Shown in pieces: positions 2 through 29,395 of a DNA stretch of 64,000 bases (positions within the stretch are counted from its first letter, which is position 1; each line of letters starts with the position of its first letter). Where the stretch lies: contig CAVVNL010000021.1 of assembly GCA_963749565.1 (NCBI GenBank), positions 14,111 through 78,110 of the forward strand, written 5' to 3'. This stretch comes from an uncultured Acidobacteriota bacterium. GTDB taxonomy: Bacteria; Acidobacteriota; Vicinamibacteria; Vicinamibacterales; CAVVIG01. The position numbers were made by a program, and so were the translations under genes. The notes beneath the pieces were generated by a model that was not told the DNA's origin, searched no databases, and saw nothing but the letters and a program-made list of their open reading frames with translations.

Positions 2-451
2 CCGGCGTGGTACCTGTTCGGCGGGGCGGCGTTCCTGTACGGCGTCTTCGATCTCGTCGAACGCACGCCGCTCGAGATCGTGTTCATCGCGATGGCCTCG
101 GGGTTCGTCTATCTCAGCATCGTGCTGCACAGCCGCATGCTGCTCTTCGTCAGCACGATGGCGATCCTGGCCTACACCGGGTGGTTCACCAGCGAGCACT
201 TCACCGATTCCGTCGGCTGGCCGCTGGCACTGGTCGCGTTCGGGCTGTTCATGATCGGCCTGAGCGTCGTGGCGCTCCGAATCGATCGCCTGTATGTTCG
301 CGGGAAAGGCGGACGCGGCGCGTTAGCGGTTGAGAACATGGCAGGTCTAAAGACCTGCGCTACAAGCTCGATGACACTGCGAGGCCAAAGCCTGGAGCCT
401 CGAGCGACGGATAGTTCGATACGTCGAGCACGCCCCCGGCCTGGAACATGA
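2..451 (+). CDS. Polytopic membrane protein, C-terminal part (5' end outside window)
   Basis: Frame is open from the window edge. Hydrophobic helices are present (IVFIAMASGFVYLSIVL, MAILAYTGWF, WPLALVAFGLFMIGLSVVAL). The tail reads through hairpin 341-358 and overlaps the convergent gene, so the true stop is uncertain. Confidence 0.45.
   Translation, partial: PAWYLFGGAAFLYGVFDLVERTPLEIVFIAMASGFVYLSIVLHSRMLLFVSTMAILAYTGWFTSEHFTDSVGWPLALVAFGLFMIGLSVVALRIDRLYVRGKGGRGALAVENMAGLKTCATSSMTLRGQSLEPRATDSSIRRARPRPGT
341..358. repeat. Small REP-like stem-loop GCAGGTC-TAAA-GACCTGC between convergent genes
   Basis: Perfect 7-bp stem with a 4-nt loop, directly 3' of the minus-strand stop at 360. Same design as the elements at 13213-13292, 18972-18989 and 26157-26212. 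Confidence 0.7.
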
Positions 452-1495
452 GCGGCGGATCGCAGACGTCGCGCGCCAGCAGCCACGTCCCGAATGCTCC
501 TTCCTGGGCAATCAACCGATCGCCGGCCGCGACGGCGACCGTCAGCCCCGCGCGGGTAAGCAGGCTGGTCTCGCCGACTTGCGCACCGACAATCAGGCCG
601 ATGCCAGCCGCGCGTGACGCGCGGACAACCGCCAGCGATCGGAGCAACCCGCCCATCTTGGAAACCCGGAGGTTGATGAGCCAGCGGGCCGGCCTGTCGC
701 GCAGCAGGGCGATCTGGACAATCTGGGCGGCGCGCAGAAGGCTTTCGTCCAGGACGATCTGGCAATCGAGCATTTCGCCGATGCGGGCCAGCTCATCGTA
801 CTGATTCGGACGAAGCGGCTCCTCGATCGCGAAAAACGGATAGTCGAGCGCGCGGAGAAACCCGGCCGCCTCCCCGGCGCTGTTCCAGAGATTATTCGCG
901 TCAACCCTGATCCTGAGGCCCTGCGTGTTCCAGCCGCGAAACACCTCGATGTGCTCCCGATCGCGTTCGAGGTTGCCGGACAGCTTCAGCTTGAAATCAG
1001 TGAACCCATACTGGCGATACCGCTCAGCGGTGGCGCGGAACACATCGGCGTCTGCGTCGCCGGCCACGGCCGTGTACGTGAATCGACGGCCTCGCAGGCT
1101 TGGCAGAGACAAGTAAAGCCTCCATCGTCTGGTCGGCGGTCCTTGGCGAAGACGTCGAGGATCGCCAGCTCGATCGCACACCAGGCCGCCGGGTTTCGGT
1201 CGAGATCCTCCGCATGGAACGTCATCCAGGCCTCGAGCGACGCCAGGTCCACAACCTGGTCGCGCAATCCGGCTTCGTGCCGCGAAAAAAAGGCAGCCGC
1301 CGTCTCGAGCGTCTCTCCGGTGACGTAAGGCCTCGGACACGCTTCGCCGTAACCCGTGGCGCCTGCTTCGGAGACAGCCTCGACCCAGAGACTCGACGTC
1401 TCGGTCCGCTCGGCGGAGGCGTGACGAAATCCAGCCTTGAACGGAATCTCGAGAGACTTGATCTGGAGACGGCAAATCACGGTGCGTCCCGGCAT
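360..1495 (-). CDS. Enolase-superfamily enzyme, MLE subgroup (dipeptide epimerase / N-acylamino-acid racemase-like)
   Basis: The N-terminal capping domain lies in the ORF 986-1642 frame (MPGRTVICRLQIKSLEIPFK..., ATG at 1495). The barrel lies in the ORF 360-1475 frame with FKLKLSG (KxK), RVDANN, IEEP, VLDES and RVSKMGG. There is a frame break near 1100. Confidence 0.8.
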
Positions 1496-1503
1496 GGCGT
1501 GTT

Positions 1504-3151
1504 TCAGGAAATCACGTACTCGTCGAACGACAGCACGAGGTCCTTGCGGTATTGGACGACCGCCGGCTTGAACTGACCTTCGCGCTGCCCCCGGCCAACG
1601 CACGCCGCCTTGTAGGCTTCGGCCGCCCCCGGCCTGAGCCACGCGACGCTGAGTGCCCCGAGCCGGCCGCTCGCCCGCTTGCTGTCGTACTCGATATTGA
1701 GCTCGCCGAGGCGCCGGTCGACCGCCACGGCGATCGTCTGCGCATCGGGAGGCGTTCGGTCTTCCGACTCGATATACAGGCGATACGCCGACCGCTCGTC
1801 GTCGGCGACCAGCACGAAAAACGCTGGCGCCATGCCGAACCGCGATCCGACGTCACGAACCGCCTGGATGGTTTGCGCCTCGTACACCTTCTCGCCGGTG
1901 AGGCTGGTCACACCCTTGCCCTTCTGAACGAAGCGCAACAGCGGCGTTCGATGAAAGATGTCTGTGACCTCGATCAGGTCGTTCATGAAGTAGCGGTACA
2001 AGCCTGACATCGTGGTGATCAGGATGTAGTAACGCCTGCCGGCTTCGAGGCGATCCAGCGTGAGCGATTCCGGGTTGCCGCCGTCCCACTGGTCCTGTTC
2101 CACGAATTCGAAAAAATGATGGTGCAGCGGAGGCAAGCCGCCCGGCGTTTCGGCACTGAGCGGGATCGTGCCCCTGAACTCGGTCGCCTGATAACCGAGC
2201 TCCATGACCGCGGCGCCGGGAGGCAGCTTCTCGCGCAGCCTGTCGAGGCGCGATGCCGCAGCTCCCACCCGTCCAGGTCGTGACGAGCCGGATGCCGGGC
2301 CAGACGTTCGCAAACGTCAGCGCCGGCATGCCTCGCAGGCGCGCCGCGATCGCGGGGCGAGGCTTCAACCGGCCCGTGACGACATCGCGCAGCGGGGCGT
2401 CGACATTCTCGAGGGCATCGAGGCGGCCGGTCTCGAGCGCCCGCAGGAGCACATCGCGTCGAGCGTTCAGCACGTCCAGCAGGCGAAGAAACGTACTCGG
2501 GTTCGGTGAACCCATGTAGGTGATGCCGGGCTGGGCGAGGGCGAGGCTCACGATGACGAGGTACTTCAGATCGTAGTCCGTCAGGCTCGACACCTCGGGA
2601 GGGATGACCAGGCGCGATTGAACGACGCGGGGCAGAGCCTGATAGAGATGTCCGGATACGGAGCCGACGACGTGGCCGGAATCGAGACGGCCCTCGACGG
2701 CCGCGCCCATGATGCCGAGGGCCTTTCCCGCGAACGCCTCCGGACACGCGCGCCATTGCAGATAGGAAAACAGGGCCTGCTCGGCTCGATGGGCGGCGAG
2801 CATGTCCGGCGTGATCGGAATGAGTTTGGGCGCGCCGGTGGTGCCGCTCGTTTGCGCGTAGAACAACGGAGCTTCCATCGTGAGCGCCTGCACGCCGGTA
2901 CGGCGCTGTTCGTCCACGTAGGGGCGCAGCATCTCGTAGTCCTGCACGGGCACCCGCTCGCGAAACTGCGCGGCCGTTCGAATGTCGGCAAATCCATGGT
3001 CGATGCCGAACCGGGTGCGCTGATTCGCGGCGAGCAACCTGCGCAGCACATCGAGCTGCGCGACATCGGGCTGGTGCGCCATCCGTTCGACAGGGCGCCA
3101 GTACCGGTGCTCGTACCAGCGCATCGCCGCGCCCAGCAAGAGCCCGCCCAT
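1504..3151 (-). CDS. Bacterial GH3-family protein (ATP-dependent acyl-acid amido synthetase fold)
   Basis: N-part in ORF 1853-3151 (…FYAQTSGTTGAPKLIPIT…) and C-part in ORF 1504-2313 (…YRYFMNDLIEV…, …SKRASGRLGAL…). There is one frame break near 2270. The stop is 8 nt before the next gene start. Confidence 0.8.
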
Positions 3152-3161
3152 CTATGCGTTC

Positions 3162-4028
3162 CTACCGGATGAACGGCGCCCGCATGAGGCTGAGAAACGA
3201 CCGTGGGTACTCGCGATCCTGCAGACCAAGATCTTCGACCTCGCGTTCCCTGGGCAGGTACCACGTGCCGAAGAGCACGTCCCACACAATCACCGTGTTG
3301 CCGTAGTTGGCGTTCGACTCCTTTGGCGCGCGGGAGTGATGCCAGCGGTGGGTTTCGGCGCTGCCGACGATGTAGTTGAGCAGGCCGTAGTGGAGCCGGA
3401 TGTTGCAGTGCTGAAAAAAGCCGTTGGTCGCGTAGGAGATGTAGTACAGCGCGAGCACGCGTGCATCAACCTGCATGAGCAGGAACGGCAGGCTGTCGAA
3501 ACACATCTGCAACGCTTTCTCGATCGGATGGAAGCGCGAGGTGTTCAACCAATACAGCTGCTCGACAGAGTGGTGGACGGAATGCAGCCGCCAGAGCGTC
3601 GGGCTCTCGTGCGACGCACGGTGCAGCCAGTAACGCAGAAAGTCCACCGCCAGGACCATGAGTACCGCCTGCAGCCAGATCGGCCAGCGGTGCGGCCAGA
3701 TGACGGCGATCGGCAGATCGAGTGCGCGCGCCGGCGCGATCAACGCGTACGTGAACAGGAAGCCCATGAGAGGAGGAAATGCCAGCTGCACCACGACCAT
3801 GAAGGTCAGGTCGGTCCTGACCTCGCCCGTGACCGGCCGCCAGTCCAATCGGTGCGGGAACTTCGCCTCGAGCCACGTCACCAGGGCCGCGGTGACCAGG
3901 ACGGGAACGTAGGTGCTGACGATCAGCGATGCGCCCTGGCGCTGCAGCAACGCGAACTGCACGAACGCCAGGATCATCACCCCCGGATAGATCAGCCACG
4001 GAGCCGCTTTCTCCATCCCCGCAGTCAT
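3162..4028 (-). CDS. Fatty-acid hydroxylase / sterol-desaturase superfamily membrane enzyme
   Basis: Intact 288-aa ORF. N-terminal TM helices are followed by histidine boxes HRASH, HSVHH and HRWHH. Confidence 0.85.
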   Translation of the reverse strand: MTAGMEKAAPWLIYPGVMILAFVQFALLQRQGASLIVSTYVPVLVTAALVTWLEAKFPHRLDWRPVTGEVRTDLTFMVVVQLAFPPLMGFLFTYALIAPARALDLPIAVIWPHRWPIWLQAVLMVLAVDFLRYWLHRASHESPTLWRLHSVHHSVEQLYWLNTSRFHPIEKALQMCFDSLPFLLMQVDARVLALYYISYATNGFFQHCNIRLHYGLLNYIVGSAETHRWHHSRAPKESNANYGNTVIVWDVLFGTWYLPREREVEDLGLQDREYPRSFLSLMRAPFIR

Positions 4029-4048
4029 CGTACCGATTGTGGCTCATT

Positions 4049-5311
4049 TCATTCCGGCAGCTCGCGCAATCGCCGCTCGAGAAAGCGCCGCTCGGGTTCC
4101 TGCAGAGTCAGCGCGAGGGCTCGCTGGTACGAGGCCCTGGCCTCCGCGGTCCTTCCCAACCTCCTGCACAGGTCCGCGCGCGCCGAGTGCGCCAGGCGGT
4201 AGTCGTCGAGATCGCCCCGCGCCAGGATCGCGTCGATCAGCGCCAGGCCTGCCGCCGGCCCGTCGCGCATCGCAACCGCCGCGGCGCGGTTCAGCAGGAC
4301 GACGGGCGACGGGTCCGCCCGCGCCAGCACATCGTACAGCCCGACGATCTGCGCCCAGTCGGTTGCCCCGGCATCCTGCGCCTCGGCGTGGACCGCGGCA
4401 ATCGCCGCCTGAAGCGTGTACGGGCCGAAGCGTCGCGACGACAACGCCCGCTCCACCAGCGCAGAGCCCTCGGCGATGTGGTCGCGGCTCCAGAGCGAGC
4501 GGTCCTGCTCGTCGAGCAGCACGAGCTCGCCGGCCGCCGACGATCGCGCCGGGCGCCTCGCCTCGTGGAGCAGCATCAGCGCCAGCAGCCCTTCCGCTTC
4601 GGGCTCGGGCAGCAGCTCGACGAGCAGCCGCATCAGGCGGATCGCTTCGCCCGAAAGATCGTGGCGCGTCAGCGAGGCGCCAGACGAAGCCGAGTACCCT
4701 TCGTTGAACACCAGATAGATCACGTGGAGAACCGTATCCAGGCGGCCCGGCAGGTCGGCGCGCGACGGCACCTGATACGGAATGCGCGCGTCACGGATCT
4801 TCGCCTTGGCGCGGACGATCCGCTGCGCGACGGTCGAAGGAATAGTAAGAAACGCCCGCGCGATTTCCTCGGTGGTGAGGCCGCACACCTCGCGGAGCGT
4901 GAGCGCGATCTGCGCATCGGGCGGAAGGGCCGGATGGCAGCAGGTGAAGATGAGGCGCAGCCGATCGTCCTCGACGCCGTCGTGTTCGAGGTGTTCGAGC
5001 TCCGCAGCGCTGCCCGCCCTCGCCTCGAGCTGCTCGGCGAGCCCCGAGAGCGACGCCTGGAACCGGGCACGGCGGCGGAGGGCGTCGATCGCCTTGAACC
5101 GGCCGGTCGAAACGAGCCACGCCCGCGGGTTGTCAGGCACGCCGTCCTGCGGCCAGCGTTCCACCGCGGCCGCGAACGCGTCGTGAAGCGCCTCCTCGGC
5201 GAGGTCGAAATCGCCGAGCAGGCGAATCAAGGTGGCGAGGACGCGGCGCGAGTCGGAACGGTAGACAGCATCTACCGCCTCGCGGGCTCGTTGGGCTGCG
5301 TCCTCGCTCAC
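4049..5311 (-). CDS. ECF sigma factor with long C-terminal helical/TPR-like extension (ECF42-type)
   Basis: Sigma-70 region 2/4 core (…RRVLATLIRLLGDFDLAEEALHDAF…, …LTLREVCGLTTEEIARAFL…) plus a C-terminal extension of about 230 aa. GTG start at 5311 was chosen because the upstream part of ORF 4049-5827 overlaps the YciI-like gene. Confidence 0.8.
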   Translation of the reverse strand: MSEDAAQRAREAVDAVYRSDSRRVLATLIRLLGDFDLAEEALHDAFAAAVERWPQDGVPDNPRAWLVSTGRFKAIDALRRRARFQASLSGLAEQLEARAGSAAELEHLEHDGVEDDRLRLIFTCCHPALPPDAQIALTLREVCGLTTEEIARAFLTIPSTVAQRIVRAKAKIRDARIPYQVPSRADLPGRLDTVLHVIYLVFNEGYSASSGASLTRHDLSGEAIRLMRLLVELLPEPEAEGLLALMLLHEARRPARSSAAGELVLLDEQDRSLWSRDHIAEGSALVERALSSRRFGPYTLQAAIAAVHAEAQDAGATDWAQIVGLYDVLARADPSPVVLLNRAAAVAMRDGPAAGLALIDAILARGDLDDYRLAHSARADLCRRLGRTAEARASYQRALALTLQEPERRFLERRLRELPE

Positions 5312-5328
5312 GAATGGCAAGGCTGCCG

Positions 5329-5685
5329 CTATGGCTGATCGAAGGTCATGACGGGCCGCACCTCGACGCTGCCCGTGCGAGCCGACGGGATCTTCGAGGC
5401 CACCTGGATGGCGTCGTTCAGGTCCCTCGCTTCGATGTAGTAGAACCCGCCCAGCTGCTCCTTGGTCTCGGCGAATGGACCGTCCGTCGTCGACACCTTG
5501 CCGTTGCGGATCCGCACGGTCGTGGCTGTGTGAACGGGCTGGAGAGCCTCCCCGCCCAGGTACTGGCCGCTCTTCCGGATCCCTTCCGTAAAAGCGAAGT
5601 ATTCCCCCATGAAGGCATCCGATTCGCTCTTCGACATGGTCCCCATCGTCTTCTCGTCGTCGTATATCAGGCACAGATACTTCAT
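5329..5685 (-). CDS. YciI/DGPF-domain protein
   Basis: MKYLCLIYDDEK… …DGPFAETKEQLGGFYYIEA… (DGPF motif). AGGAGG lies 6 nt upstream of the ATG at 5685. This is the usual neighbour of ECF42-type sigma factors. Confidence 0.85.
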   Translation of the reverse strand: MKYLCLIYDDEKTMGTMSKSESDAFMGEYFAFTEGIRKSGQYLGGEALQPVHTATTVRIRNGKVSTTDGPFAETKEQLGGFYYIEARDLNDAIQVASKIPSARTGSVEVRPVMTFDQP

Positions 5686-5748
5686 CGCGTCCTCCTGCCA
5701 GATAGTCGTTCGGGGATCCGTCGAATTCGACACGCCGGCAAGACCGGC

Positions 5749-7738
5749 CTACCGGATTTTTCCCAAAGGCTGAGCGACGCGCTCCCTCGGCAGCAGCCGG
5801 TAGAGTCGCGTGTCCTTCCCCTGCCACGGGTCGACGCCAATCAGCTCGAAATCGCGACGCCGGTCCATGGCCGCCACGGTTCTCTGATATTCGTCCTGCC
5901 TTTCGTACAGCGCGCCGTGCACGATGATGAAGTCCACGTCCCGCCGCCGCAGCTCGGCGATGGATTCTTCGTCAGGGAATTTCTGCACGAGGCCGAGCAG
6001 GCGGGCGTACCGAGGGAGGACTGAACCCGCTGTACCCGTTCACCAGCGTGTGCCAGTGAAATGTCGAAAAGTACATGTAGACCGGTTCCAGGTAGATGTC
6101 CGGCGACTTGAGCGGCAGCTCCATCAGCACGCTCGGCGGCTCGTCGACGCAGCCGCTGGTAGACAGGTGGAGGCGACGCCTGGACATGGCCCAATATCAG
6201 CGTTGACCGGTATTCGGCGAAGATCAGAAGCGCAACGGCCAGCGTCATGACGGATGCCACGCGCCGGGTACGCCGCGCCGCGACGCGCGCGACTCCATAT
6301 CCCACCAGAATCGACAGCGAGAGGCCAACGAGCAATGGCCATTCGAGCCGGCACCCGGAGTCCCCTGTAGGGGGGAACGTACGCGTGCAGCCACTCGTAT
6401 GAAAAGCCGTTGAAGCCAAGCGACACGTCGAAGGCCAGCACGCGTGGCCAGCAGGTAGCCGATCCTTGCCGCCGACATCGGCGGCCAGAGCCCCACCAGC
6501 GCGACCAGCGGCACGAAAAACCCTTGAAACAGCTCCCGTTCCTGCTGGCCCAGTCCTTCGGTGAGCAGGCCGAAGGCGTCGTTCCGGCGATGCGCCGCCA
6601 GATAGTTCTGCGGCGTGGCGCTATAGAACGCGATCTCGGTCAGGGGACGCTCCCCTACCGATTGCCTCGCGGCCGAATAGGGGAACGCGAGCGGCGCGAC
6701 AAGGACACCCGCGAGTGCCGCGCCAGCCAGCAGCGGCCTGATAGCGCCAATGGCGCGGTCGCGCCCGGCCGCGATTAGCAGAACCCCGGCGAACGGCACC
6801 ATGAACGTCGCGAAGAAGATGCCGTAGTAGATGGACGACAGGGTCTGCAGCGCGAAGAAGAGGCCGGTCAGCACCCCGTCCCGAAGGCGTCCACTCTTCA
6901 GCGTCCGGTGAAAGGCCCACAAGCAGAGTGGCATCCACTGCGCCATCTGCAGCTCGAGGTGGGCGTAGTGCATGTAACGGTACGGCAGGAACGCGAAGAC
7001 GAAGCCAGCCACGAGCGCCGCGCCGATCTGCCCGGTCAGGGATCGGACCAGCACGAACATCCCGATTCCAGACAGGGCGAAGCCGGAAAGAAGCAGCAGG
7101 TTGTACACGACGAGCTGCGGCACGCCCAGCCAGATCAGCGGCGCAACGGTGAGCGCCGGCACCAGCGCCGCATCGGAGAAGGCCAGCGTGTACCGCGCCG
7201 GATGGAAGATGTTGCCGTCGAACAAATGGAGCGGATCGCGCGTGATCTGGTGCGCAACCCACGAGATGCGCCAGGTCGAGAACAGCGGGTCGCCGATGTC
7301 GGGGCTGACGCCTGTGTCGAGATGCCGAACCTGGGGGTAGGTCATGAACACCGTCAGCCCCGCAAAGAGCAGCGCCAGCCCCGCGGCCGTAAGCAGCCGA
7401 TGCCGTCGTTGCGTGCCACGGATCCAGGCGTGCGTGCTTTGCGCGTCCGGGTCGAGATCATCGTCGCGAAGCGGCCCGGCGGCCAGGGCCATATCGCGCA
7501 CCGAGTTGAAGATCCACTCGGGCAGGGCCGGGCGAGCCACGACGAGATGGCGGACGGCCAGGATGACCGAGGCCCAGAGGAGAATACGCGGCGTGGACCG
7601 GATGGCGAGCCTTAGGCCCAGCGGTCGAGCGATAAAACCGCCCTCGACCCATACGTAGGCAGCAACGGCGAGCAGGCAGAGCACAGCAATATCCGCGGCC
7701 AGCACCCACGGCCCGAATCGTTCACGACGATTGGTCAC
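5749..7738 (-). CDS. Large polytopic membrane protein, GT-C/PMT-like glycosyltransferase candidate (fragmented)
   Basis: The N-terminal 400 aa or so are multi-TM (ORF 6245-7738). The continuation is spread over ORFs 6124-6441, 5841-6419, 5972-6187 and 5749-5988 (…YFSTFHWHTLVNGYSGFSPP…, …FPDEESIAELRRRDVDFIIVH…). There are at least four frame breaks between 5970 and 6440. Confidence 0.55.
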
Positions 7739-16351: not shown

Positions 16352-16792
16352 CTAGCCGACTTTCGCGTCGACCGTGATCTGCATCGTCCCGCGATAGGCG
16401 TTGGACACCGGGCAGCGTCCTTCGGCCTCCTGCGCAACCGCCGCGAACTGCGACGCCTCGAGCCCCTTGAGGCCGTACGCCGTCACGGTCAGCTTCGACG
16501 ACACGATCTTGATCCCCGCGTCAGTCTTGTCGGCGGTGACCGTCGCGCGCACGACGGTCCGGTCCGCAGAGGCCTGCTTGCGGCCGAGCGTGCCGTTCAG
16601 CGCCATCGCATAGCATGCGGCGTGCGCCGCGGCCATCAGCTCCTCGGGGCTTGTTTTTCCGGCCGGCTCGCCGATCCGGTTCGGAAACGTCACGGGCAGC
16701 GCGAACGCGCCGCTCCCTGCTTTCGCCTCGCCCTGCCCCTCCGTGACCGAGCCCTTCCAGTCCACGTCCACGTGTCGCTCGAATGTCGCCAT
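16352..16792 (-). CDS. osmC: OsmC-family peroxiredoxin
   Basis: MATFERHVDVDWKG…AAHAACYAMAL…EGRCPVSNA…; GAGGTGA lies 6 nt upstream of the ATG at 16792. Confidence 0.85.
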   Translation of the reverse strand: MATFERHVDVDWKGSVTEGQGEAKAGSGAFALPVTFPNRIGEPAGKTSPEELMAAAHAACYAMALNGTLGRKQASADRTVVRATVTADKTDAGIKIVSSKLTVTAYGLKGLEASQFAAVAQEAEGRCPVSNAYRGTMQITVDAKVG

Positions 16793-16796
16793 GCTG

Positions 16797-17447
16797 TCAC
16801 CTCGAATTGCTGATTGATGATTGGTGATTGATGATTGAGGGTTCTTCTTCTTCCCCTTGAAACTCAACTGGACGGCGGTACCGGCCAGGCCGAGCACGAC
16901 CCACGCGTAGGGAATCCACCGCTGTCCCGGAGGGGGCGTCGTCGGATACAGAATCCAGACGCTGCTCGCGGACTTGGCCGCCAGCGCACCGCGGCCGCCC
17001 GCGGCCGCAAGGATCCCGACGATGAGGGTCCACGCGCCGACGAATGCGGTGGTGACGATGATCACGTGCCGCTGGAGCGAACATCGCCGCGATCGCGCCC
17101 GCCACCGCCAGCCCGATCACGAGCAGCACGGGCGGATCGCCGCTGCCGAACGGCGCCCACCCGAAGTGCGCGACGAGCGCGCCGAGGCCCGCGCCGACGA
17201 GCGCGATGCCGACGAAGTACGCAAACATCAGGATCGCCGCGCCCACGAGGCCGCCGACGAGCGCCGCCACGATCATCCCGGCGGTGTTGCTGATCCCCAT
17301 CATCGAGCTGGCGATCATCGCGCCGAGAATGAAGCCGAAGAGCGCGAGGACGTATCGGAACAGCCGGTAGCCGGCAAAGCACGCCAGCGCGCCGGCGAGC
17401 ACCAGCACCATGGCGGCGGGCAGCTCGTACGCCTGCGGAAGCATCAC
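16797..17447 (-). CDS. DUF4203-like multi-TM membrane protein
   Basis: Gly/Ala-rich TM helices (…FGFILGAMIASSMMGI…, …LVGGLVGAAILMFAYFVGIALVGAGLGALVA…). There is a frame break near 17060. The C-terminal half continues in the ORF 16352-17065 frame, which has no stop before osmC. Confidence 0.5.
   Translation of the reverse strand: MMLPQAYELPAAMVLVLAGALACFAGYRLFRYVLALFGFILGAMIASSMMGISNTAGMIVAALVGGLVGAAILMFAYFVGIALVGAGLGALVAHFGWAPFGSGDPPVLLVIGLAVAGAIAAMFAPAARDHRHHRIRRRVDPHRRDPCGRGRPRCAGGQVREQRLDSVSDDAPSGTAVDSLRVGRARPGRYRRPVEFQGEEEEPSIINHQSSISNSR
16803..16841. repeat. One-arm word array (GATTGAT/GATTGGT units) in the osmC 5' leader
   Basis: Sequence is cgaattgctgattgatgattggtgattgatgattgaggg. 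On the minus strand it reads …CAATCATCAATCAGCAATTCGAGGTGACAGC-ATG. Confidence 0.7.
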
Positions 17448-28900: not shown

Positions 28901-28950
28901 CTGGTCATCTGGTTATTTGGTCATTGATTGGGGATTTGGGTCGATTGTTG
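28901..28950. repeat. Left arm of GGTCATCTGG-word inverted repeat flanking the four-helix-bundle gene
   Basis: aatctggtcatctggtcatctggttatttggtcattgattggggatttgg is near-identical to the reverse complement of 29346-29395. Confidence 0.85.
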
Positions 28951-29315
28951 AGCGCAGGTTGGTGCGGGCAGTGCGCAGCGAGCTTCGCGAAGATCGCGCG
29001 CAACTCGCTCGCTTCGGCGCGCGCGGGATCGCACGTCGAGACGGCGAGAAGCTGCGACTTCGGTCGATGACATCGAGCCAGTAGACGCGATTCGTCGGTT
29101 TCTTCGACGACGATCTGAGCTTCGCGATGAACTCGAGCTCGCGAGCGAGCGCTGCACGCAGCGCGATAGTTCGCGCCGACTGACGTGGCACTTTTTGCCA
29201 ATTGTCGGCCGATAACCTGGCCGCAGGCGCATGAGGAAACTTGTCGATCAGCCGTAAGACCGTGAGCGCAAAAGAGATCGTCCGTTGCTTTCAATTGCTC
29301 GCTCTGAGCGCTCAT
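28905..29315 (-). CDS. Four-helix-bundle protein (23S rRNA IVS-protein / Avd-like family)
   Basis: …IGRQLAKSATSVGANYRAACSARSRA (ORF 28905-29357), then EFIAKLR… and …VYWLDVI… (the 28913-29191 frame), typical of TIGR02436-type proteins. There is one frame break near 29130. Both ends abut repeat arms. Confidence 0.65.
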   Translation of the reverse strand: MSAQSEQLKATDDLFCAHGLTADRQVSSCACGQVIGRQLAKSATSVGANYRAACSARSRARVHREAQIVVEETDESRLLARCHRPKSQLLAVSTCDPARAEASELRAIFAKLAAHCPHQPALNNRPKSPINDQITR

Positions 29316-29345
29316 AGCGATCGATTCACATACATGCCAGTCGTA

Positions 29346-29395
29346 CCAATCCATCAATCAATGACCAGATAACCAGATGACCAAATGACCAAATG
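29346..29395. repeat. Right arm of GGTCATCTGG-word inverted repeat
   Basis: Sequence is ccaatccatcaatcaatgaccagataaccagatgaccaaatgaccaaatg. Confidence 0.85.

Follow-up and report, generated by a model that had tools for sequence, protein, structure and literature searches.

The OlsHI system is a described case of a bacterial GH3-family ligase that is encoded in an operon with lipid-tailoring enzymes. In this system, OlsH of Singulisphaera acidiphila converts a free fatty acid and ornithine, with ATP/Mg2+, to N-acyl-ornithine (2025; PMC12493201; review PMC12971839). With this result, the statement of an earlier note on the DNA treated here, that bacterial GH3 proteins are largely uncharacterised, has become partly outdated, and the authors of the OlsH study consider it probable that the majority of GH3 homologues in bacteria act on other substrates, such as other amino acids (PMC12493201). 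Another described enzyme of relevance is OlsE, which in Rhizobium tropici and Agrobacterium hydroxylates the head group of ornithine lipids at C4, as far as the review that cites the original studies relates (Vences-Guzman 2011; Holzl 2018; cited in PMC12971839). Here, a five-gene unit is described in a 64,000-nucleotide (nt) stretch of contig CAVVNL010000021.1 from an uncultured bacterium of the Vicinamibacterales (Acidobacteriota), hereafter the window, in which an ECF42-like sigma factor gene is followed by genes for a membrane hydroxylase (FAH), a GH3-family ligase (GH3) and an enolase-superfamily enzyme (ENO).

Sigma factors of the ECF42 group, a part of the sigma factors with extracytoplasmic function (ECF), reportedly have DGPF/YCII genes as neighbours. 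The group is widespread and its physiological output is essentially unknown, the known regulons being composed of DGPF proteins and other small proteins of unknown function. Known members combine a sigma2-sigma4 core with a long C-terminal extension that contains TPRs, a directly upstream gene of the YCII/DGPF kind, the lack of an adjacent anti-sigma gene and a promoter of the TGTCGR...CGWC type, which in Sinorhizobium meliloti (RpoE10) has the form TGTCGG-N17-CGTC (PMC6180224). These traits recur in the window, the promoter with a slightly different spacer and -10 element, and a further difference is that the sigma operon here continues straight into a three-enzyme cassette for a putative lipid conjugate.

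Open reading frame listing, translation and Pfam searches gave five minus-strand genes across positions 5685-360, with intergenic gaps of 8, 20, 10 and 8 nt, in line with the spacing of 8-20 nt noticed before. The features of the region are as follows.

5329..5685, minus strand: YCII-related/DGPF protein, 118 amino acids (aa) (PF03795, E 3.6e-23; the translation contains DGPF)
4049..5320, minus strand: ECF sigma factor, ECF42-like, ~423 aa (Sigma70_r2, Sigma70_r4_2, DUF6596, TPR; TIGR02937)
3162..4028, minus strand: FAH, membrane di-iron hydroxylase, OlsE-like, 288 aa (PF04116, E 9.5e-30)
1504..3151, minus strand: GH3 acyl-acid amido synthetase, read-through length 548 aa (PF03321, PF23571, PF23572; extra base at 2249)
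360..1495, minus strand: ENO, MLE-subgroup enolase-superfamily enzyme, racemase/epimerase-like, 377 aa when read through (PF13378; FKLKLSG, SKMGG)
1135 and 1111/1112, minus strand: extra bases of the assembly within ENO
5705..5732, minus strand: ECF42-type promoter-like motif TGTCGA-N18-CGAC, upstream of the DGPF start codon, from which its end is 20 nt away
341..358, minus strand: hairpin seen in the sequence, 7-bp stem and 4-nt loop (GCAGGTC TTTA GACCTGC)
7738-5752, minus strand: membrane-protein gene upstream of the DGPF gene, stop codon at 5751-5749, in at least three reading frames in the assembly

The trio FAH-GH3-ENO forms the core of a cassette that is self-contained and, as the comparisons below indicate, mobile by horizontal transfer. 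The reading preferred here, to which a probability of roughly 0.55 is given, is that this core makes a tailored N-acyl amino acid, with GH3 as the ligating, ENO as the inverting and FAH as the hydroxylating enzyme, and that it would be expressed in this genome from an ECF42-type promoter.

Conservation of the triad across genomes, which the earlier note had set as a test, was found wherever flanking sequence exists. A scan with a GH3 alignment, taking one genome per species, gave 80 loci; they were recruited by peptide patterns of one GH3 clade, and the synteny is that within this clade (37-71% identity). In 78 of the loci, GH3 has FAH as its immediate upstream neighbour, the other two having no upstream sequence, and in all 80 ENO is the next gene downstream. 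These loci span at least five phyla, namely Acidobacteriota, Pseudomonadota, Gemmatimonadota, Nitrospirota and Verrucomicrobiota, the carriers in Pseudomonadota being Methylophilaceae, Thiobacillus, Bermanella, Oxalobacteraceae, Ectothiorhodospiraceae and one alphaproteobacterium. Five relatives from the same taxonomic order keep the FAH-GH3-ENO order and have no sigma or YCII gene nearby.

A fourth conserved gene, overlooked at first and absent from the source genome, encodes a membrane protein of ~140-150 aa with four predicted helices (TM4), which in most loci immediately precedes FAH. By profile, TM4 is present within 10 kb in 69 of the 80 loci; four loci (L060, L064, L066 and L074) have it ~2 kb upstream of the hydroxylase gene, and seven with at least 3.9 kb of upstream sequence are devoid of it. 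No Pfam or NCBIfam family matched TM4, for which the ESM Atlas gives clusters of hypothetical proteins only, and no further neighbouring gene family was common across lineages in the 80 loci. Moreover, natural fusions join the members of the cassette: TM4 with FAH in five loci, FAH with GH3 in eight, and GH3 with ENO in one (L030). The AlphaFold2 (AF2) model of a natural TM4-FAH fusion forms one confident body, with a predicted local distance difference test score (pLDDT) of 92.8 and a predicted template modelling score (pTM) of 0.90; although such a model is not a binding test, it is compatible with TM4 packing against the hydroxylase. In a Foldseek search of this model against the PDB, no match was obtained at E <= 0.001, Scs7p appearing only at E ~1. 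In two loci, L014 and L025 (L014:5186-7471), TM4 makes up the N-terminus of a protein of 761 aa that also carries Peptidase_S15 and PepX_C domains, a CocE/NonD-type alpha/beta hydrolase that could be a counterpart of the OlsI O-acyltransferase.

As a four-gene unit, the cassette is clearly delimited, has been widely transferred, shows natural fusions and was previously uncharacterised; the literature searched contains no description of the combination of hydroxylase, GH3 and enolase-family enzyme. It differs from the OlsHI system in having neither an OlsG methyltransferase nor an OlsI O-acyltransferase, and in containing an OlsE-like hydroxylase, an enolase-superfamily enzyme and TM4. No OlsI-type alpha/beta-hydrolase O-acyltransferase was found in the window unit or conserved beside the cassette.

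The ligase carries three GH3 domains in Pfam (PF03321, 171 bits; PF23571, 71.5 bits; PF23572, 51.5 bits), all over their gathering scores, and its family profile matches plant structures over the full length, such as AtGH3.15 (6AVH, E 6.6e-36, positions 21-531). Across 24 orthologues there is little or no variation in the nucleotide motifs TSGTTGxPK, YQ(S/A)(T/S)E and YRYFMND, which are also present in the window, the third having ND in place of the GD of the plant enzymes. Domains, structure match and motifs together place it among the GH3 acyl-acid amido synthetases. For an intact orthologue from the same genus, the best NCBIfam match was OlsH (NF052613) with 105.7 bits and E 2.1e-30, far from the 620-bit cut-off of that model. 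Judged by this score, GH3 is a relative of OlsH and not its equivalog, and ornithine, the substrate of OlsH, need not be its own. In one distant case (L019; G038:C2:863000-882900), a GH3 paralogue of 28% identity is followed by a 250-aa gene and then by a distant enolase-family gene (31-34%), with no FA_hydroxylase match in the 20-kb stretch around the pair; the pairing of GH3 with an enolase-family gene seems to be older and wider than the association with the hydroxylase.

The hydroxylase is the sole PF04116 gene of the source genome (104 bits). Its translation contains the histidine boxes HRASH, HSVHH and HRWHH, which correspond to the HX3-4H, HX2-3HH and HX2-3HH pattern of the fatty-acid hydroxylase/sterol desaturase superfamily and whose residues are invariant in 43 orthologues; the resemblance to lipid hydroxylases of the OlsE type, claimed from these boxes, is strengthened by the fact that OlsE (NF052566) is the only NCBIfam match. 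This alignment covers residues 8-287 against model positions 5-284 of 293, that is 280 positions, at 178.5 bits and E 1.8e-52, as compared with a cut-off of 475 bits, so FAH belongs to the same superfamily of di-iron membrane hydroxylases but is not an equivalog of OlsE. The contexts differ as well: OlsE acts with lipids made by OlsBA and is not linked to a GH3 or racemase gene, whereas the hydroxylase of the cassette usually has a TM4 partner, to which it is sometimes fused.

In ENO, the residues K168, K170, D198, E224, D249 and K276 are invariant in 42 orthologues. They form the KxK at the end of strand 2, the Lys at the end of strand 6 and the D/E/D metal ligands of the MLE subgroup, as the signature seen at the outset had indicated. 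The AF2 model (pLDDT 92.6) superimposes on MLE-subgroup structures with a TM score of 0.8. Against the PDB, the profile gave 3JVA (2e-42), 2P88 (N-succinyl-Arg/Lys racemase, 2e-41) and 1JPM (1e-37), well ahead of 1MUC (a true muconate lactonizing enzyme, 4e-18) and 1SJA (1e-11), the latter an enzyme with N-succinylamino-acid racemase and o-succinylbenzoate synthase (NSAR/OSBS) activity, and Foldseek returned the same top three. All curated models were matched far below their cut-offs: dipeptide epimerase (NF041118, 57.5 against 500 bits; NF011708, 53.7 against 343 bits), OSBS/N-succinylamino-acid racemase (TIGR01928, 84 against 200.65 bits) and muconate cycloisomerase (TIGR02534, 65.6 against 334.95 bits), with cis-3-hydroxy-L-proline dehydratase at 59 bits as a further weak match. 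By these comparisons of profile and fold, and likewise by sequence, ENO is nearest among solved proteins to dipeptide epimerases and N-succinyl-Arg/Lys racemase, and not to muconate cycloisomerase or OSBS. A grouping with the latter two, OSBS in a menaquinone context, had been named as the outcome adverse to the proposed pathway; it was not seen, and no menaquinone genes lie near the cassette.

The dipeptide epimerases (YkfB 1JPM/1TKK, 3JVA) and 2P88 share with ENO the fold, the KxK/K pair and the D-E-D metal site, and they act on alpha-amino-acylated amino acids, which is the product class of GH3. They differ in sequence (identity 22-24%) and in context, that of ENO being new and including one fusion with GH3. 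In one pairwise HMMER alignment, the DFD of YkfB is aligned with G-A-F of ENO, of which G329 and F331 are invariant. Because the DxD pair of YkfB, which we take to bind the alpha-ammonium group of the dipeptide, is matched here by an invariant G and F, the alignment suggests a substrate of ENO that bears an N-acyl group without ammonium.

The sigma factor contains Sigma70_r2 (residues 20-86), Sigma70_r4_2 (124-175), DUF6596 (193-292) and TPR (377-404) in 423 aa, which is the ECF42 architecture of sigma2 and sigma4 with a C-terminal extension of ~240 aa; its start codon is TTG at 5320 or GTG at 5311. The YCII gene lies 8 nt upstream, and the motif TGTCGA-N18-CGAC at 5732-5705 is located within the 63-nt gap between the stop codon of the preceding gene and the DGPF ATG. 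Of the two sites at which the earlier note wanted an ECF42 motif looked for, the one upstream of 5685 has such a motif, and none was found upstream of 4028. The strict form of the motif has 135 matches over the two strands of the 6.1-Mb genome. The support for the promoter comes from its location upstream of DGPF genes at three loci and not from enrichment in the window: TGTCGA-N17-CGTC is found 71 nt upstream of the DGPF gene on contig C19, and TGTCGA-N17-CGAC 93 nt upstream of the first DGPF gene on C18, with a near-copy on C3. On this basis, the link between DGPF and ECF42 looks functional.

It is also observed that the genome has a second ECF42-like sigma gene (C18:95026-97441, 50% identical), preceded by three YCII/DGPF genes. 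Further DGPF genes elsewhere (C19:368733-369043 and C3:26255) are each preceded by TGTCGA-N17-CG(A/T)C, and the C18 and C3 motifs share extended near-identical sequence.

The wiring to ECF42 is, by comparison of the loci, lineage-specific, because a sigma match occurs in only one of the 80 other loci, ~3 kb downstream; the adjacency of DGPF and ECF42 is thus not part of the conserved unit to which it had been assigned, and in this lineage it occupies the place that TM4 and the native upstream region have elsewhere. That the 3' end of the sigma gene is joined to FAH in an independent contig (L101) as well shows that this junction exists in nature. With this arrangement, the trio probably shares a transcript that begins at the ECF42-type promoter of the sigma factor itself, in keeping with the gaps of 8-20 nt and with the lack of a predicted sigma-70 promoter or terminator in the region.

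How the cassette may have come to this position is indicated by comparison within the genus. In two same-genus genomes, it is flanked by a DDAH-like gene on one side and a 159-aa gene on the other, close to rpsL-rpsG-fusA. At the collinear site of the source genome (G000:C8:158600-160000, compared with L015:6733-12861), the DDAH-like gene and the next gene are adjacent without a cassette; the same-genus counterparts of this site carry TM4-FAH-GH3-ENO plus a DinB_2 gene, and the source genome's own copy is on contig C21, behind the sigma gene. Because the collinear site on C8 is empty, the cassette appears to behave as an insertable block of ~4.9 kb. A functional link to the DDAH/amidinotransferase-like gene, which follows ENO in the two same-genus genomes, was considered and dropped, since C8 keeps this gene without the cassette; the adjacency of the two reflects the insertion site. 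In a GH3 tree, a quick one with midpoint root and support values from the Shimodaira-Hasegawa-like approximate likelihood ratio test (SH-aLRT) only, the window groups with L023, L025 and L040, apart from the same-genus copies, and a close orthologue is present in only 5 of 40 relatives. The empty site, the grouping in the tree and the patchy presence argue together for horizontal mobility. In the same tree, seven loci from Methylophilaceae and other Pseudomonadota (L024, L028, L030, L036, L037, L039 and L049) form a clade nested within Vicinamibacterales (support 99), which suggests transfer between Acidobacteriota and methylotrophic Betaproteobacteria, in either direction.

In the proposed pathway, GH3 would adenylate a free carboxylic acid of fatty or otherwise lipophilic nature and link it to an amino acid's alpha-amino group, in the way that OlsH acts with ornithine. 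ENO, equipped with its Lys/Lys acid-base pair and Mg2+ site, would remove the alpha-proton from the N-acyl amino acid and invert the centre from L to D, and FAH would hydroxylate the conjugate in the membrane, its target being the head group if the analogy with OlsE holds. This would yield a hydroxylated lipid of the N-acyl (D-)amino acid type. In the source lineage, where the DGPF-sigma pair has replaced TM4 and the native upstream region, the trio would be switched on by whatever activates the sigma factor. Substrates, order of the steps, stereochemistry, site of hydroxylation and co-transcription are what we infer from these comparisons. No OlsB/OlsF-type N-acyltransferase domain (PF13444) was found in the assembly, an absence that is unproven because of the estimated completeness of 77%.

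This reading presupposes that the genes are intact, whereas GH3 as assembled occupies two frames, with a switch at ~2249, and ENO three, with switches at ~1135 and ~1111, a complication that had gone unnoticed. If the frameshifts were real, the cassette would be decaying in this genome and, with TM4 lost, be a non-functional remnant behind the sigma operon. For decay speak the three breaks in two genes and the absence of TM4 from the whole source assembly (tblastn, and a profile against the six-frame translation with a best E of 1.9). It is nevertheless highly improbable. The contig L101, from an Illumina/JGI short-read metagenome, is 98.2% identical to the window over 3031 nt; its single gap corresponds to the window's extra G at 2249, and it encodes an intact GH3 of 548 aa (P0001). 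Logan short-read contigs from three other soil/rhizosphere studies lack the base at 2249 (run X1), at 1135 (X2) and at 1111/1112 (X2, X3), so that the bases missing from the short reads coincide with all three break points. In addition, rpoB, rpoC and secA of the source genome (6.1 Mb in 24 contigs, yet with an estimated completeness of only 77%) are each divided between reading frames, and many related metagenome-assembled genomes of the 'MFD' series have comparable gene splits at other positions. Because independent short-read contigs are without exactly these bases and essential genes such as rpoB are split too, the three 1-nt insertions are assembly errors. Programmed frameshifting was rejected, as error accounts far better for three separate insertions that affect two genes and are all missing from relatives. 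Between window and L101, GH3 has 18 synonymous and 11 non-synonymous codon differences, a mostly synonymous pattern per site that marks a gene under selection, and at least seven other loci are also without a nearby TM4. Given that the breaks point to the assembly and the substitutions to selection, GH3 (548 aa) and ENO (377 aa) are read as intact genes.

With an intact cassette, the chemistry could still be of another kind. One alternative, an unlikely one, is that FAH modifies the acyl chain rather than the head group, either ahead of ligation or following it, giving a hydroxy fatty acid or oxidising a lipid methyl group to the carboxylate that GH3 uses. Among the members of PF04116 are fatty-acid 2-hydroxylases and C-4 methyl sterol oxidases, and the latter oxidise a lipid methyl group to a carboxylate. 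The FAH-GH3-ENO order and the FAH-GH3 fusions would suit a hand-over of substrate from FAH to GH3, and the OlsE score is well under its cut-off; yet among curated NCBIfam models FAH matches OlsE alone, end to end, and genes for sterols, hopanoids or carotenoids are not conserved next to the cassette. Rather unlikely, too, is that FAH hydroxylates the beta-carbon of the amino acid and ENO then dehydrates it, giving an N-acyl dehydroamino acid and not a D-amino acid. The KxK/K set serves racemases and dehydratases alike in the MLE subgroup, and OSBS and cis-3-hydroxy-L-proline dehydratase, to both of which ENO has weak matches (84 and 59 bits), work by alpha-proton abstraction followed by beta-elimination. 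FAH and ENO also occur together in every locus of the set. However, the nearest solved relatives of ENO are all epimerases or racemases, and ENO appears to need no hydroxylase because the distant GH3-ENO pair of G038 stands without an FAH match in its 20-kb stretch. Moreover, OlsE targets C4 of ornithine and not the beta-carbon, at least in the review's account of it (Holzl et al. 2018, cited in PMC12971839).

A quite improbable reading takes the cassette as a non-lipid module, in which a small non-fatty acid of an aromatic, auxin-like or signalling kind is conjugated or recycled, or N-acyl-D-amino acids are salvaged. It has in its favour that the GH3 profile matches the plant enzymes conjugating indole-3-acetic acid (IAA), jasmonic acid (JA) and benzoate over their full length, and that NSAR-type relatives of ENO work in D-amino-acid salvage. 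These points are countered by the membrane character of two of the four cassette proteins, by the fusion of GH3 to the membrane hydroxylase in eight loci and by the lack of any deacylase or aminoacylase conserved beside the cassette. The only characterised bacterial GH3 enzyme, furthermore, uses fatty acids (PMC12493201).

Several observations weigh against the tailored N-acyl amino acid and its ECF42-type promoter as well. GH3, FAH and ENO are all far below the cut-offs of the OlsH, OlsE and racemase equivalogs, and for this reason their substrates may differ from those of the named enzymes. Racemisation and dehydration are indistinguishable from the sequence of ENO. Since the cassette contains no O-acyltransferase, a two-chain lipid of the ornithine lipid (OL) type is not expected from it alone, and since TM4, present in 69 of 80 loci, is missing from the source genome, the hydroxylase may be impaired there. 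With respect to the promoter, the ECF42 motif shows no enrichment over the window, with 6 copies as against 5.9 expected, and the copy upstream of the DGPF gene has CGAC as -10 element and an 18-nt spacer, as against CGTC and N17 in S. meliloti.

A more far-reaching version, in which an ECF42 sigma factor directly drives an envelope-lipid operon and the product is a new lipid class, a hydroxylated N-acyl-D-amino acid, is speculative and on present evidence doubtful. If true, it would provide the first concrete function for ECF42/DGPF systems, namely stress-induced membrane remodelling, and would add D-configured lipoamino acids to bacterial lipid chemistry. The carriers, among them Vicinamibacterales, Nitrospirales, Methylophilaceae, Gemmatimonadota and Verrucomicrobiota, are environmentally dominant and mostly uncultured, and an unrecognised lipid could be common in soils and waters. 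In the cassette, an OlsH-like ligase is combined with a hydroxylase similar to OlsE and an enzyme resembling racemases, and the capture of the cassette by an ECF42 operon amounts to a natural regulatory experiment that may offer a handle on the stimuli of ECF42.

Some minor observations concern the population and the flanks of the unit. An in-frame length variant exists in the population, as a soil-metagenome contig (run X1) is without 9 nt at 715-723, inside ENO. Single-base indel errors are pervasive in the source assembly, for example at C19:395045-403402, C17:347243-349736 and window positions 5752-7738, and caution is due with genes called broken, fused or decayed elsewhere in the window, as at 16352-17447 and 28901-29395. 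The last of these intervals is the membrane-protein gene upstream of the DGPF gene, for which Pfam gave no match. In a simple scan of positions 200-6000, neither a sigma-70 promoter nor an intrinsic terminator was predicted, and the hairpin at 341-358 was not scored as an intrinsic terminator in the terminator scan. This hairpin begins 2 nt past the ENO stop codon, is followed by no T-run and is a member of a family in the window that resembles repetitive extragenic palindromic (REP) elements.

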